This document shows positions 41,701 to 44,635 of a stretch of DNA of 64,000 nt, in pieces. The first letter of the stretch is position 1. The number at the start of each line of letters is the position of its first letter. Where the stretch lies: contig CAYSHM010000005.1 in NCBI GenBank assembly GCA_964430885.1, forward strand, positions 1-64,000, in the 5' to 3' direction. The DNA comes from an uncultured archaeon. Its GTDB lineage: Archaea > Thermoplasmatota > Penumbrarchaeia > JASLWR01. Both the position numbers and the translations under genes were made by a program. Below the pieces are notes generated by a model. The model was not told the DNA's origin. It did not search any database and worked only from the letters and a program-made list of their open reading frames with translations.

Positions 41701-44635
41701 CACTGACGCAAAGGAAAATGTCGAGCATTTCACATACGATGGATTGGGAAGGATGCTCAGTCATACAAATGCCGAAGGCAACACCTGGAACTGGAGCTAT
41801 GACCCCTTCGGAAATCTGCTCACCGAGACCGATCCCCTTGGCAACACTGATGAATACCAGTATGATGCCGCCCAGAACCTTATCATGGAGATAGATGCAC
41901 TGGGAAGGGAAACTGAATATGTCTATGACGAGGTTGAGAGGCTGACCAGCATAATAGACCCAATGGACAACAGCAAGGATTTCGAATATGATACAAATGA
42001 TAATATTATTTCAGTCACCGACGAGAAAGGAAATACGGAAACATATGCAATAGACACACAGGGAGCCATGCTGGAGATGACAACTGGTGAGGATAACACA
42101 TACGAATATGTAAGGGATGCCATGGGCAGGGTTCTGGAAGAGATCATGCCCGACGGACGGACCATTTTCTTCAAGTATGACAAGAGAGGCAATATTGTTG
42201 AAAAGATGGTACAGGGACCCGGAATAACCGGGAATGACAAGATCGCCTACACCTATGACGGTGAGGAGAATCTCCTGAGCGTTGTAAATGATTTCGGGGA
42301 AGGGGAAACTGTTACAATGCAGTATGATAAGCTGAACCGTGTGGAGCAGATAATACAGAACTGGAACCCGGTGGAGAGCGTTGTGGTGATGGAATACGAT
42401 GCGGTGGGGAACATAATAAGGGTATCGGATTCCACTGTAACAATGCATTATGAATATGATGAGAACAACATGCTCACCAAGATATTCGACGATTACGGCC
42501 ATGAAGTGGTCTATGAATATGATAAGATAAACAGAAGGACCAGAATAGATTACCCCAACAACATGGCCTCAATCCAGAGCTGGGACGACGCAAACAGAAT
42601 GACCCGAGTTCAGGCCGTGAATACCTGGGATAATGTGGCAAACAACCGGACAGTGGTTTACGATGCTGTGGGTAATATAATCAACGAGACCGAGAATGCA
42701 GGAGGTCAGGAATCCAGCTACTGGATGTCAACAGAGTACGATGATCTGGACAGAGCGGTTCAAACATCTATTAATTATACCGTCGGACCCTCGGTTGTGG
42801 AATATGTATATGATGCAGTCGGACTTCTTACGTCAACCATCCAGCATAACGATGATGGGCCTGACAAATATGTCAATCTCTCCTACGACAAGGAAAATAT
42901 GGCAGTGGGACGAGAGGCGACGGGTGAGGAGGACCAGGTTTTCGTGAGAGATGAATGCGGAAGGCTCCTGGAGACGAAGGAAGCTGTATCCGGAAAGGTC
43001 CTGGAATCCTTTGCATATGACGAATTCGGTCGGCTCTACGATATTTTCATAGAGGGGATGGGAAACCACACCTCAACACTGAGCGCTCTGGGTTGGAGAG
43101 TCAGGGACGTAAAGGATGACGAAACGGATAACTTCTACTATTATTTCAGCGGCATCCTAGGCTGGTTCACCAAGAGTGAATGGGGTGACTGGCAGGAGAA
43201 CTCTGCATGGACCAAATATCTCATTGACACAGCCCAGGGACTGAACAACGGCGAAGTTGTACAGTATAAATATTATCAGGACTACGAGAACGATCTGTGG
43301 AACGGTTACTACAGGTCCCTTGATTATGATGAGAACAGCAATGTGAGAACCTACTATCTCTTCAGTTCCGTGGACATGTTCCAGAGGATCCCCGCCGAGG
43401 ATTCAAGAAGCACAGGTCCATCAGCGAAGAGGCAGGTCAACTACGGTTTCTTCACCATGGACATAATTGTTCAGCCTTCAGGCTCCTCGGGTTCCCTGAT
43501 ACAGGTATCCATAAACGGACCGGGGGGCAGTATGATGAACTTTGCCTTTGAATCCGGATATGGATTCTTCGAGATGTGCATGGCTCTATTCTTCGGTGCT
43601 CTAGGCGAGGACATTTTCACTGAACCATGCTCACCTGGATATGAGTGGTACAAGCAGATAGAGACCCCTGAGGTGACCATAGCCGGAGAGAGATATACCC
43701 CAGAAGGAAAAATAAAGATCAAGGGGCCGCAGCCCAAGAAACAGAAGATCCCCCTGAAGAAGAACAATAAGAAGAAACAGAAAAAAATCGACCTTGTAGG
43801 GCTTCTGGACGATATTATGGACGACCTGATGAGCGAGCTGGCGGACCATTTCATAGATGAGTTCGTGGGCAATCTCATGGACAATCTGGCCAATTCGGTC
43901 CTTGACCACTTCTTTGGAAAGGCGGGGAAGGGTTTGGCGGACGATGCAAAGAAGATAGTGGGCTTCCTCATGGATGAGACTGGCATCAAGGACAAGGTCG
44001 CTGACCTCATAAAGGGAAGTGATATTGTAAAAGGGGCCATTGACAAGGGTAAACAGATGGCCAAGGATATTGTTCACGGAGCAATAGACGGGGCCATGAG
44101 GGCCATTGATGCCCAGCTAAACGCCCTGGCTGCTGCTATGATCAAAAGCTGTAAGATAGATATGGACAAGCTAAGGGCCCTGGCAGATGAACTGCTGGCC
44201 AAGCATGTTGACAAGCTCAAGGACAAGGTTGGAAAGCTAGCTGAAAAAGCTGCTGAAAAGATAGCCAACAGCAAGCCTGTCCAGAACGGCATAAAGAAGG
44301 TGGTGGGCAAGGTGAAGAAGGTTCTGGGCAAGATAGTTGGGAAAGCCTTGAAAAAGATAGCCAAGAAGGCCATTGCCGCCGGGGCCAAGTTCGTACCTGT
44401 GGTGGGTCAGATCATGCAGGCCTGGGATGTGGGCTGGGAGATAGGAACCAGCATAAGAGGCATCCCTCTGCCGGGAGGCGGGACGGTGGGTGAGGCCATA
44501 GATCAATGGGCAGTGGACGAGTTCACTGATGCAGCGGTGGTGGTGATGGACGAAGTTGAAGCTAATGGGGGTGGGGCCTCCGGACTGTTCTATACCTGGT
44601 GGGATAACTGGAAGATAGGGGTGGGGTTAAAATGA
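38738..44635 (+). CDS. YD/RHS-repeat protein with N-terminal signal anchor, DUF6531-like domain and helical C-terminal domain
   Basis: VNTANGNL..FSRSYNS..GYGWTHSY, followed by dozens of YD..G.......DP.G repeats over about 1300 aa. Confidence 0.92.
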   Translation: MASKKKHLKRFLKSKKSTLLKASVILITVIFLSLLIPEKVGIREYQSKIIRHRPDTRLDERTAEDPGNGGMLPYFHYVDSSVNTANGNLFISENDISRPSLPQALTFSRSYNSMNSLSTTSVGYGWTHSYNSYLMPEEGMVTLFREDGAVFSFNENGTEFDTPPGLDALLTKNGTNFLLMYKNGMTFTYDRNGVLRNLYDRSGNKQNLNYKDDVLTHVKDINEQSLEFSYDASSRLIKVSDGTRDVTFEYDGGGRLIKATDASGNSTNYYYGPNNQLKVREDRRGKAVYYEYDQDSRAYEIGKAEGDLLFKSQTSHYLKYSISYVESGAELTNAMGHVWNINLDTDGRISGITDPLGYGTTVTFDENWNVDSAEDQMGSTQHFEYDNYNNMVTWTDPLGNAKAYTYEMFTVDFYYCPPATMTDENGKTWTYSYNSQGRLLEDKDPSGNSTLYTWTENGLLESITYPTGARTDYEYDNSGNLISTAMPNGLLVDYSYDSLGRMIKQKKGNRVTTHSYDLNNRLYRTNYPDNSYEVYEYDALGTIIKKRDQNGGIHEYDHGEKEVIIEEVLNGTEIYNARVNKIGDIQKEQNANGDITSYYYDPMGRLTMIKYPDKTYDSFSYDGAGRMTSAKDQMGFTTTYEYDAIGRLETERNHLGSTVTYSYDAAGRMTGFNDLNGGQWTYEYDAVGNMIKETDPAGYSQNYTYDAVGNRISREDKNGNMWEMEYDGMNLMTEMNHPDGAVESWSYDLYGDVTEHVDADGERWEFEYDSMGNMIKEIDPLGNFKGYSYDRLGNMLSYRDERGNRIRYQYDDLGNMISITDPLGRITEYEYDGEGNIIEMERPDGEEFTFTYDSFGRVLSQKTPWRTLSYGYDAGGNLISKTDPCGNAVRMEYDHNGLILKYTDEEGYSSNYRYDSDGNLIRYDDRKEGIHWWEYTRDAVGRVTMVEDPAGNSWRYSYDGEGNIVRIVDAAGNPASYSYDHMGNILSHTDAKENVEHFTYDGLGRMLSHTNAEGNTWNWSYDPFGNLLTETDPLGNTDEYQYDAAQNLIMEIDALGRETEYVYDEVERLTSIIDPMDNSKDFEYDTNDNIISVTDEKGNTETYAIDTQGAMLEMTTGEDNTYEYVRDAMGRVLEEIMPDGRTIFFKYDKRGNIVEKMVQGPGITGNDKIAYTYDGEENLLSVVNDFGEGETVTMQYDKLNRVEQIIQNWNPVESVVVMEYDAVGNIIRVSDSTVTMHYEYDENNMLTKIFDDYGHEVVYEYDKINRRTRIDYPNNMASIQSWDDANRMTRVQAVNTWDNVANNRTVVYDAVGNIINETENAGGQESSYWMSTEYDDLDRAVQTSINYTVGPSVVEYVYDAVGLLTSTIQHNDDGPDKYVNLSYDKENMAVGREATGEEDQVFVRDECGRLLETKEAVSGKVLESFAYDEFGRLYDIFIEGMGNHTSTLSALGWRVRDVKDDETDNFYYYFSGILGWFTKSEWGDWQENSAWTKYLIDTAQGLNNGEVVQYKYYQDYENDLWNGYYRSLDYDENSNVRTYYLFSSVDMFQRIPAEDSRSTGPSAKRQVNYGFFTMDIIVQPSGSSGSLIQVSINGPGGSMMNFAFESGYGFFEMCMALFFGALGEDIFTEPCSPGYEWYKQIETPEVTIAGERYTPEGKIKIKGPQPKKQKIPLKKNNKKKQKKIDLVGLLDDIMDDLMSELADHFIDEFVGNLMDNLANSVLDHFFGKAGKGLADDAKKIVGFLMDETGIKDKVADLIKGSDIVKGAIDKGKQMAKDIVHGAIDGAMRAIDAQLNALAAAMIKSCKIDMDKLRALADELLAKHVDKLKDKVGKLAEKAAEKIANSKPVQNGIKKVVGKVKKVLGKIVGKALKKIAKKAIAAGAKFVPVVGQIMQAWDVGWEIGTSIRGIPLPGGGTVGEAIDQWAVDEFTDAAVVVMDEVEANGGGASGLFYTWWDNWKIGVGLK

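Follow-up and report, generated by a model that had tools for sequence, protein, structure and literature searches.

Organization of the YD-repeat locus

The 64,000-nucleotide stretch of archaeal DNA analyzed here (the window) carries on its forward strand a gene for a YD/RHS-repeat shell protein, P0002, followed by two coupled genes, P0004 and P0005. The features of the locus are as follows.

38738..44635, + strand: P0002 gene, single ORF; exported YD/RHS-repeat shell protein of 1965 aa
38738..38848, + strand: basic stretch and one hydrophobic helix, residues ~1-37; putative signal anchor or signal peptide, read from the sequence
38978..39196, + strand: DUF6531 at residues 81-153, a plug-type domain found at the N-terminus of Rhs proteins (PF20148, E 1.7e-15)
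39197..43057, + strand: YD-repeat shell, residues ~154-1440; 22 RHS_repeat stretches, approximate limits set by eye
43058..43417, + strand: conserved post-repeat block (LGWF..H..W..WA..Y(Y/S)..S region) at the usual place of the Rhs core, from the alignment
43418..43714, + strand: weakly conserved linker, Pro/Gly/Ser-rich in relatives, from the alignment
43715..43786, + strand: Lys-rich linker KIKGPQPKKQKIPLKKNNKKKQKK, from the translation
43787..44632, + strand: conserved C-terminal domain of 282 aa, predicted all-helical (alignment of seven members, predicted helices); the core of the finding
43802..43891, + strand: acidic helix, residues 1689-1718, net charge -9 by charge count
44150..44152, + strand: invariant cysteine, residue 1805 (C122 of the domain), an invariant alignment column
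44288..44389, + strand: cationic amphipathic helix, residues 1851-1884, net charge +12 by charge count
44390..44446, + strand: FVPVVGQIMQAWDVGWEIG, the most hydrophobic and most conserved helix, residues 1885-1903, from the alignment
44585..44632, + strand: aromatic, Trp-rich C-terminal end, last 16 residues, by aromatic count
44632..47187, + strand: P0004, 851 aa, translationally coupled next gene (ATGA overlap with the P0002 stop)
44749..45516, + strand: partner domain of P0004, kept beside the tail-bearing YD gene in 3/3 loci (BLASTP)
47184..51932, + strand: P0005, 1582 aa, third coupled gene (ATGA overlap)

The RHS_repeat family of Pfam matched P0002 over 22 stretches (E 4.9e-148), YD_repeat_2x matched it at E 2.2e-120, and the shell repeats matched one another in a tblastn self-comparison. 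NHL and FN-plug domains were absent from the Pfam assignment, which gave RHS_repeat and DUF6531 only, and EGF and TTR domains were likewise not found by Pfam. PF25023 (TEN_YD-shell) was in the database's precomputed list for P0002; in our own scan of the family, it was matched by the relative P0008 only, at 19.7 bits against a cutoff of 50. A hydrophobic N-terminal segment was present in all six members whose N-terminus is complete (P0002, P0003, P0006, P0008, P0010, and the L001 protein).

The stretch flagged by the original prediction, 43715-44635 (+), is the final 306 residues of P0002 and closes at the stop codon, which confirms that it belongs to the C-terminus of a YD protein (ORF 38738-44635). 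A basic linker, acidic helices, a cationic run and a Trp-rich end had been described there, and translation recovered all of the quoted segments (KGPQPKKQKIPLKKNNKKKQKK, LLDDIMDDLMSELADHFIDEFVGNLMDNL, GIKKVVGKVKKVLGKIVGKALKKIAKKAIAAGAKFVPVVGQIMQAWDVGWEIG, and FYTWWDNWKIGVGLK) in the given order, with the cationic run beginning at nucleotide 44288, that is, residue 1851. Most of the linker at 43418..43714 had pLDDT values of 29-43 in a single-sequence model. The tail has a mass of ~31 kDa by arithmetic, to which a linker of ~200 aa is added.

The C-terminal domain and its relatives

When the tail was used to search 1.84 billion representatives, seven real relatives were obtained including the window protein, the six other representative clusters matching at E values from 2.4e-59 to 1.1e-05. 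An eighth match, P0011, was set aside as a low-complexity repeat protein. The domain formed the C-terminus of a YD protein in all seven real matches, and the named sources of relatives were Ca. Kariarchaeaceae and Anaerolineales assemblies.

Sequence and profile searches of Pfam, NCBIfam and the PDB returned no match for the domain and no enzyme family, in agreement with the earlier statement that no nuclease or deaminase motif is visible (Pfam, NCBIfam). No antimicrobial-peptide or bacteriocin family was matched at E up to 10, no colicin-type pore-forming profile of Pfam was matched by the seven members at E up to 1, and no adhesion domain was recognizable with Pfam. Five of the seven tails gave sub-threshold matches to DUF445, which spanned profile positions ~90-330 of 368; the best was P0007 with 24.0 bits (E 4.9e-06) against a gathering score of 33.8, and the window copy gave no match at E up to 1. 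DUF445 is an uncharacterized Pfam family annotated as a predicted membrane protein, and our literature search gave no article on its function among the titles and abstract starts of the matches listed (12 of 14). One of seven tails gave a sub-threshold match to SseC; the DUF445 and SseC matches are no more than weak leads toward a membrane-acting domain. By its alignments, the tail defines a small unnamed family.

The domain was conserved end to end, including the ~130 residues that separate the acidic helix from the cationic one. Nine of its 282 positions were invariant (D20, K48, A92, C122, L151, A156, G207, I219, and I238). Both structure models were all-helical at low confidence (pLDDT 47.7 and 46.0) and the fold was not obtained; the models are consistent with the helical character proposed earlier.

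In all seven aligned members, net charge was -2 to -9 for the acidic first helix and +4 to +12 for the cationic one. The lowest cationic charges, only +4 or +5, were those of P0010 and P0008, and very high Lys content was limited to the window protein and P0003, the only two that have the Lys-rich linker in common. The charges of the two helices co-varied (r = -0.84, n = 7, non-independent sequences), which fits their pairing. As parts of the original prediction, the acidic and cationic segments were borne out by their conservation; no cleavage motif for a precursor was found. In the window copy, the 18-residue hydrophobic moment reached 0.56-0.64 over residues 1846-1881, whereas the moment of the whole 34-residue run at 100 degrees was weakly above shuffles (p = 0.05), and the whole cationic helix gave p < 0.01 against shuffles in only one of seven members. 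The predicted amphipathicity was thus found over 18 residues but not convincingly over the whole run. Amphipathic helices are also usual in soluble bundles.

Pro followed the cationic helix in six of seven members. The FVPVVGQIMQAWDVGWEIG helix motif lay ~80-98 residues before the C-terminus in 8/8 members, included the invariant G207 and I219, and overlapped the best Kyte-Doolittle window in five of seven. The best 19-residue Kyte-Doolittle mean was 1.11 in the window copy (family range 1.02-1.79) and 1.62-1.79 in P0008, P0009, and P0010; with a threshold of at least 1.6, the window copy had no TM-grade hydrophobic stretch or hydrophobic hairpin. The final 16 residues contained 3-8 aromatics in 11/11 sequences, and this 16-mer ranked 1-12 of 267 tail 16-mers for interfacial hydrophobicity. 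Being conserved across the family, the acidic/cationic/aromatic pattern exceeds chance; the Lys-rich linker described in the original prediction was not shared by the family.

Absence of the autoprotease core and fixation of the tail

The Rhs-associated core TIGR03696 was absent by HMM from P0002 and from 6/6 relatives (7/7 scanned), and the positive control, L002:5994-12737, scored 36.6 bits against a cutoff of 32.5. A regular expression for DPxG-x18-DPxG found the motif at the shell end in 0/8 members, its three matches sitting in internal repeats, and no processing site, cleavage motif or protease motif was found by regular expression and HMM. With this core missing, nothing indicates how the tail would be released.

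Tail identity tracked shell identity in 45/45 pairs among 10 proteins whose tails all align, in a set gathered via the tail, so that shells bearing other tails could not appear in these pairs. P0006 and L001, for example, were 92% identical in the tail and 81% in the shell. This tracking indicates that the tail is not polymorphic, unlike those of warfare toxins. With no autoprotease core and a fixed tail, the family is unlike classical Rhs toxins.

Gene neighborhood

P0004 consists of a signal peptide, a conserved domain of ~255 aa, PKD (E 6.8e-11), further beta domains, one TM helix, and an acidic tail. P0005 contains a beta-helix, OmpL47-type barrels, Big_5, a C-terminal TM helix, and an acidic tail, and all three coupled genes encode exported proteins. 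Gene context was compared over three loci, in which the partner domain of P0004 matched L002:4099-5253 at E 3e-21 and L001:10889-11755 at E 4e-15 by BLASTP; the two bacterial copies (L001 and L002) were 63% identical to each other. There was no small immunity gene directly downstream of P0002, where the ATGA overlap leaves no intergenic space. The divergent upstream gene encodes a 1285-aa protein of the Amidase_3 type, an activity that acts on bacterial walls. Archaeal examples of Amidase_3-type activity are reported in PMC12352652.

Interpretation of the tail

Starting from the observed gene structure, family, conserved charge layout, missing autoprotease core and conserved neighbor, we tentatively prefer, at somewhat less than even chances, to read the tail as a shell-carried, membrane-acting domain like the cargo of Tse5, BiTLP, and SGS1. 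A fixed helical effector domain of ~280 residues would hang from the end of a YD-repeat shell exported by Sec, and the shell would carry it and keep it soluble. At rest, the acidic first helix would pair with the cationic amphipathic helix and hide the hydrophobic FVPVVGQI helix. Meeting a foreign membrane that is anionic would let the cationic helix and the Trp-rich end attach to the lipid interface; the bundle would then open and disturb or permeabilize that membrane. The co-transcribed, secreted P0004 would be the partner, either a protector at the producer's surface or a targeting subunit. Helix pairing, membrane binding, toxicity and the partner role of P0004 are what we infer here. To our knowledge, every characterized bacterial YD/Rhs/Tc protein bears its effector at this C-terminal position, and the seven of seven relatives have the domain only there. 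Together with this position, the reading draws on the lack of an enzyme signature, the helical models, the conserved cationic, hydrophobic and aromatic features, the charge co-variation, the precedents of Tse5-CT, BiTLP-CTD and SGS1, the exported neighbors, and the upstream Amidase_3 gene.

Other observations point away from a membrane-acting domain. The window copy has no TM-grade segment, and amphipathicity had p > 0.01 in six of seven members. The autoprotease core is missing and the tail is not polymorphic. The large, secreted, multi-domain P0004 is also unlike the small polytopic membrane immunity proteins of pore-formers such as Tsi5. The mass of the tail relative to the Rhs cavity and the poor structure models likewise count against this reading.

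Nearly as likely as a membrane-acting domain, and possible though far from probable in itself, is a fixed surface module resembling teneurins. P0002 would then be an N-terminally anchored receptor or adhesin, whose helical tail would be a permanent binding or oligomerization module on a flexible linker and, jointly with the secreted protein encoded beside it, would serve cell-cell or cell-envelope contact rather than killing. The cleavage core missing in all seven scanned proteins, as in mammalian teneurins (PMC13018210), and the joint divergence of tail and shell in the 45 pairs argue for it, as do the N-terminal hydrophobic segment of the six complete proteins, pointing to a type II-like topology, the variable Pro/Gly/Ser-rich linker ahead of the domain, the invariant cysteine, and the partner gene kept in 3/3 loci. 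However, a conserved cationic helix, hydrophobic helix and Trp-rich end would be needless for simple protein binding, the tail has no recognizable adhesion domain, NHL and FN-plug are missing, and the context comes from three loci only.

The picture drawn in the original prediction, a cecropin-like lytic peptide (44288-44445) kept masked by the acidic segment and freed by excision, seems improbable to us. The cationic helix of the window copy is highly peptide-like in net charge (+12) and in its 18-residue moments, Pro stands behind it in most members, and the acidic segment is conserved. However, the 282-aa domain that contains the segment is conserved throughout, neither a processing site nor a protease motif was found, Lys richness falls to +4/+5 in P0010 and P0008, and no antimicrobial-peptide or bacteriocin family matched. 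The cecropin or bacteriocin precursor was also not borne out by the missing autoprotease core, the window copy without a hydrophobic hairpin, or the downstream region without a small immunity gene. A free antimicrobial-peptide precursor was therefore dismissed as a description of this conserved domain without a processing site, and the earlier interpretation as a whole was partly supported. We give equally little credence to the tail being common Rhs-style cargo in the form of a soluble, helical domain of undescribed type with enzymatic or ligand-binding function. The D, K, C, and G residues among the invariant positions would fit it, and many Rhs C-terminal domains are without annotation; yet the invariant positions are few (9/282) and mostly small or hydrophobic, with no catalytic-looking cluster, and no profile or PDB entry matched.

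More widely, the locus may be part of an undescribed two-gene surface system that marine Asgard-lineage archaea and Chloroflexota share with the window's organism, with a YD shell that has given up self-cleavage and toxin swapping, a fixed membrane-inserting helical domain, and a dedicated secreted partner; we regard this as rather unlikely. If true, archaea could be using a new family of alpha-helical membrane attackers on their neighbors, or the system could be a prokaryotic parallel to the toxin-to-teneurin step, with the YD cocoon as a cell-contact device in lineages living in close partnership. We know of few YD shells with membrane-active cargo, from bacteria and insects, all of them self-cleaving, and a family with such cargo but without cleavage or polymorphism, and with a secreted partner, would broaden the repertoire of the YD cocoon. 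The family occurs in uncultivated archaea and in Chloroflexota, groups in which classical polymorphic toxins are reportedly rare (PMC3482391). A toxic tail would lengthen the very short list of weapons in archaea, and a non-toxic one would make P0002 a prokaryotic case in which a YD toxin scaffold became fixed for surface contact. The tail also offers a compact, testable candidate for a new membrane-binding helical fold.

Comparison with known systems

P0002 shares the YD-repeat shell and the DUF6531 plug with canonical Rhs toxins, but differs from them in having no autoprotease core, no tail swapping, and no small downstream immunity gene. Linear cationic antimicrobial peptides come from short processed precursors, whereas the cationic segment here lies inside a 282-aa domain of a 1965-aa protein. 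Colicin-type domains bury a long hydrophobic hairpin, a stretch that the window copy does not have.

Set beside the tail by description, Tse5 of Pseudomonas aeruginosa (PA2684) likewise has a YD shell followed by non-enzymatic amphipathic or hydrophobic helices. Tse5-CT is described as a pore-former, a membrane-inserting cargo chaperoned by the Rhs shell (PMC10684867; PMC9637101), and the Rhs cavity is given as 32,000 cubic angstroms for a cargo of 16 kDa (PMC10684867). Tse5-CT, of 16 kDa, is released at DPxG-x18-DPxG, whereas the P0002 tail has no autoprotease core and, being about twice the mass of the 16-kDa Rhs cargo, may sit outside the shell. Tse5 also relies on type VI delivery and on the immunity protein Tsi5 with two TM regions (PMC9637101); P0002 has an N-terminal hydrophobic signal and a large secreted neighbor.

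BiTLP of Bacillus inaquosorum resembles P0002 as a surface-exposed YD shell of monoderm bacteria with a gene immediately downstream, and its C-terminal fragment is hydrophobic and membrane-binding in simulation (PMC13018210). As described there, BiTLP-CTD is toxic only if exported, and cells become permeable to propidium iodide (PMC13018210). These TLPs combine FN-plug, NHL and YD-shell with a PxxxxDPxG motif and polymorphic C-terminal domains of ~15 kDa (PMC13018210), whereas P0002 has no NHL, no cleavage motif, and a conserved tail. The main text of PMC13018210 contains no mention of archaea or Chloroflexota.

Mosquito SGS1 stores a C-terminal helix set of similar size, ~300 residues, inside its YD shell, and this set is predicted to convert to TM helices (PMC9935623). 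SGS1 differs in a Tc-BC-sized shell with beta-propellers, in keeping the autoprotease Arg/Asp/Asp, and in six confidently predicted TM helices (PMC9935623), against none in the P0002 tail at a Kyte-Doolittle value of at least 1.6. Metazoan teneurins end in ABD and Tox-GHH, not in a helical domain, and have the EGF, TTR, FN-plug and NHL domains that are absent from P0002, but they share with it an N-terminal membrane anchor, a putative one in P0002, a YD shell without a cleavage motif, and a fixed C-terminal region.

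A helical domain at the end of a YD-shell protein

Translation of the forward strand recovered every segment that the original prediction had quoted for 43715-44635, in the order stated and with a stop codon at the end. These segments belong to the final 306 residues of one open reading frame of 1965 residues, P0002. The features of this region were as follows.

38738-44635, + strand: P0002, a YD/RHS-repeat protein
43715-44635, + strand: its C-terminal part, the tail
43787-44632: predicted all-helical domain of 282 residues in the tail
43802-43891: acidic helix of the domain
44632-47187: P0004, the coupled next gene (851 residues), called the partner
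44749-45516: N-terminal domain of the partner
47184-51932: P0005, the third coupled gene

P0002 starts with a basic stretch and then one hydrophobic helix, and it matched DUF6531 (E 1.7e-15), RHS repeats in 22 stretches (E 4.9e-148) and YD_repeat_2x (E 2.2e-120). The N-terminal helix, DUF6531 and the repeats together indicate that P0002 is an exported YD-shell protein, with the tail as its C-terminal part.

The 306 residues of the tail matched no family in Pfam or NCBIfam, where the best E-values were 0.05-0.07. Sequence and profile searches against PDB gave nothing below E 0.0095, the value of a coiled-coil protein, and the best ESM Atlas score, 0.81, was at chance level. A likeness to the SseC family at rank 21 of the ESM Atlas search (0.77) was below that score and was dismissed as no evidence. 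No second copy of the tail and no orphan cassette was found by tblastn within the window.

Distribution of the tail domain

A HMMER pass over 1.84 billion representatives with the tail returned eight matches. P0011 was set aside as a low-complexity repeat protein, and the seven true members (P0002, P0003, P0006, P0007, P0008, P0009 and P0010; E 2.4e-59 to 1.1e-05) all carried the domain at the extreme C-terminus of a YD-repeat protein. P0012 came from word-based searches, and near-identical members from cluster look-ups. When genomes were scanned with the four closest alignment rows as query, two loci were obtained, L001 and L002, from an Anaerolineales assembly and an uncultured bacterium, respectively. 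Subfamily A consists of the window protein, P0003, P0006/L001 and P0007/L002, and subfamily B of P0008, P0009, P0012, P0021 and P0010.

P0009, P0019 and P0021 are labelled Ca. Kariarchaeaceae archaeon, and P0013, on a 2.6-kb contig, Thermoproteota archaeon. Taxon labels clash in one case: within the 90% cluster of P0007 one member is labelled "Thermoproteota archaeon", and L002 is labelled "uncultured bacterium". Since the shell of P0007 is 99% identical to the L002 protein, the Thermoproteota label of this cluster was not relied on; probably one of these two bins is wrong.

Anatomy of the tail

The order of elements in the tail was read from the family alignment.

Elements of the tail, from N- to C-terminus
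1st: linker; Lys-rich in the window protein and P0003 only
2nd: acidic helix; net charge -2 to -9 in 7/7 members
3rd: mixed amphipathic helices over about 130 residues; one invariant cysteine
4th: cationic helix (residues 1851-1884 of P0002); net charge +4 to +12 in 7/7 members
5th: F(V/I)P(V/I)(V/I)GQI...; highest conservation and hydrophobicity of the tail
6th: turn
7th: C-terminal part; distinct in subfamilies A and B
8th: aromatic end; 3-8 of the last 16 residues aromatic in 11/11 sequences

The charges of the acidic and cationic helices co-varied (r = -0.84, for seven sequences that are not independent). The last 16 residues ranked 1-12 in interfacial hydrophobicity among 267 windows. The amphipathicity expected of the cationic run held locally, with 18-residue hydrophobic moments of 0.56-0.64 over residues 1846-1881 of the window protein, but the helix taken as a whole was marginal against shuffled sequences: the moment of its 34 residues at 100 degrees gave p = 0.05 in the window copy, and p < 0.01 was reached in one member of seven. 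The best 19-residue Kyte-Doolittle mean was 1.62-1.79 in P0008, P0009 and P0010 and just 1.11 in the window copy, which thus has no clear transmembrane helix.

AlphaFold predicted helices throughout, both for residues 1555-1965 as a single sequence (pLDDT 47.7) and for the 282-residue domain with a 7-row alignment (pLDDT 46.0, pTM 0.38), in both cases with scores too poor for a fold. When the alignment-based model was compared with PDB by Foldseek, none of the 102 matches listed had E <= 0.001 (best E 2.8), so the comparison carries no weight.

Departures from classical Rhs toxins

The Rhs-associated core (TIGR03696) was absent from P0002 and from all six relatives scanned; the positive control, a second YD protein of L002 (5994-12737), scored above threshold. 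The pattern DPxG-x(14-24)-DPxG was found at the shell end in 0/8 members. At the place where the Rhs core would stand, we found a conserved block, LGWF..H..W..WA, and after it a variable linker, about 100-200 residues long and with much Pro, Gly and Ser.

All 45 pairs of tails among 10 proteins were alignable, and tail identity tracked shell identity: 92% in the tail and 81% in the shell for P0006 and L001, 81% and 72% for P0012 and P0021, and 41% and 33% for the window protein and P0003. As judged from these sequences, the tail is not polymorphic among relatives that were all retrieved via the tail, a set in which shells bearing other tails are invisible. No small immunity gene lies directly 3' of P0002, where the ATG of the following gene overlaps the YD stop codon.

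The partner gene and the related loci

The partner, P0004, has a signal peptide and a domain without a family match (about 255 residues), then a PKD domain, more beta domains, one transmembrane helix and an acidic tail, and its gene overlaps P0005. In both bacterial loci the gene directly after the tail-bearing YD gene encodes a homolog of the N-terminal domain of P0004 (L002:4099-5253, E 3e-21; L001:10889-11755, E 4e-15), and these two proteins are 63% identical to each other. The partner and the tail-bearing YD gene are therefore paired in three of three loci, and the pairing would appear, from sequence comparison, to span two domains of life. In addition, residues 435-576 of P0004 resemble the end of another L001 protein, the second one encoded downstream (E 3e-06).

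The partner domain gave no match in PDB, and a word-based search for homologs of the domain alone, among candidates of 145-464 residues, gave none either. In ESM Atlas it scored 0.94 to unnamed clusters of Acidobacteriota, Thermodesulfobacteriota and Thorarchaeota, which serves as a lead only. Complex prediction for the tail and the partner domain gave a score of 0.00, which weighs neither for nor against binding.

P0004 and P0005 both end with one transmembrane helix and then a long acidic tail, and P0004 contains a duplicated unit (AEEVEAAEVEESDEEIEDEGAEKDESE) of about 27 residues. A Shine-Dalgarno-like GGAGGTG precedes both genes; in the case of P0004 it points to the ATG at 44650 as a possible true start.

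Other features were noticed in the two related loci. Exported proteins of L001 (10889-11755 and 11817-12755) and L002 (4099-5253) end with YLPL(I/V/A)(V/L)R and 1-5 further residues, and the same motif occurs internally, as YLPFIVRE, in the second YD protein of L002. In sequence, the motif of these Chloroflexota-type loci resembles a C-terminal sorting signal specific to one lineage; two of the proteins with the motif were scanned with NCBIfam models and gave no match. The second YD protein of L002 (2247 residues) is encoded two genes past the one with the tail. A PKD domain is inserted close to its end, and its last 70 residues are a canonical Rhs-associated core with no toxin domain beyond.

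Composition and surroundings

GC3 was 0.58 in the YD gene and 0.65 in its tail, 0.53 in the two coupled genes and 0.52 in a C25 peptidase gene, whereas the remaining 21 genes measured lay at 0.37-0.49, so that the block at 38.7-54.0 kb (38738-53984) stands out. This composition is compatible with an island that may have been acquired from a GC-richer donor, but is not proof of it. Taken as a whole, the genes of the window look archaeal, with a match to a FlaI-type ATPase, a presenilin-type protease and surface proteins ending in a transmembrane helix and an acidic tail. A promoter and terminator scan of 37900-54600 gave counts equal to those of shuffled sequences (31 vs 26.9 and 13 vs 13.9), and no matches came from scans for Rfam families and tRNAs across the window.

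The following neighbors were also observed.

8189-9766, - strand: protein of 525 residues with a squalene-hopene-cyclase C-terminal domain (E 1.3e-11)
33067-33996, + strand: CDP-alcohol phosphatidyltransferase (E 7.2e-26)
34075-37932, - strand: divergent upstream gene; protein of 1285 residues; N-acetylmuramoyl-L-alanine amidase domain (Amidase_3, E 2.1e-24), BNR repeat domain
57162-63970: type IV pilus or archaellum-like assembly locus

A recent preprint reportedly deals with terpenoid cyclases from Asgard-lineage archaea. The C-terminus of the phosphatidyltransferase gave a RING-like zinc-finger match below threshold (21.5 bits, cutoff 27.3), an unusual fusion if real. The ATPase of the assembly locus has a long N-terminal extension and matched the FlaI model with 124 bits and the TadA model with 134 bits; the locus also encodes small membrane proteins, one with a zinc ribbon, and two membrane proteins of the T2SSF type. 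The amidase gene and the YD operon may form an antagonism or surface island. As a peptidoglycan amidase in an archaeal-looking genome, the 1285-residue protein recalls the archaeal peptidoglycan hydrolases reported in PMC12352652.

Possible roles of the tail

The original prediction was a membrane-lytic payload with a built-in inhibitor, here taken as a cecropin-like lytic peptide that the acidic segment masks and that is cut out of the tail. We ranked this model lowest and regard it as improbable, because the cationic helix is embedded in a domain conserved from end to end, no processing site was found, and a very high Lys content is confined to two sequences. An alternative nearly as likely as the reading favored below is that the tail is a fixed, teneurin-like surface module. 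It would account equally well for the absence of both cleavage and polymorphism, for a linker that is long and flexible, for the anchor at the N-terminus and for a secreted partner that is conserved. Mammalian teneurins likewise have no cleavage motif, according to excerpts of PMC13018210.

The tail shares its position, the lack of an enzyme signature, its helical nature and its membrane-seeking features with published YD cargo, and on these grounds we tentatively favor the reading that the shell carries a domain acting on membranes, whose acidic and cationic helices could form an internal latch. We found no literature on Asgard YD repeats. In titles and abstract openings on archaeal polymorphic toxins and YD repeats, YD shells and teneurins, Kariarchaeaceae and Chloroflexi Rhs, the tail domain was not described. 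The domain family, its missing autoprotease, its fixity and its partner gene were met nowhere in that literature.

The kind of cargo is already known, as non-enzymatic, helical, membrane-acting domains are carried in YD shells in Tse5-CT, BiTLP and SGS1. Excerpts of PMC10684867 and PMC9637101 describe Tse5-CT as a pore-forming cargo of 16 kDa within a cavity of 32,000 cubic angstroms, with a 2-TM immunity protein. By plain arithmetic the tail is about 31 kDa, about twice the Tse5 cargo, and may not fit into its shell, which has about 1300 residues. The C-terminal fragment of BiTLP is toxic and renders cells permeable to propidium iodide only if it is exported (PMC13018210, in part), and the helices of SGS1 are stored inside the YD shell (PMC9935623, in part).
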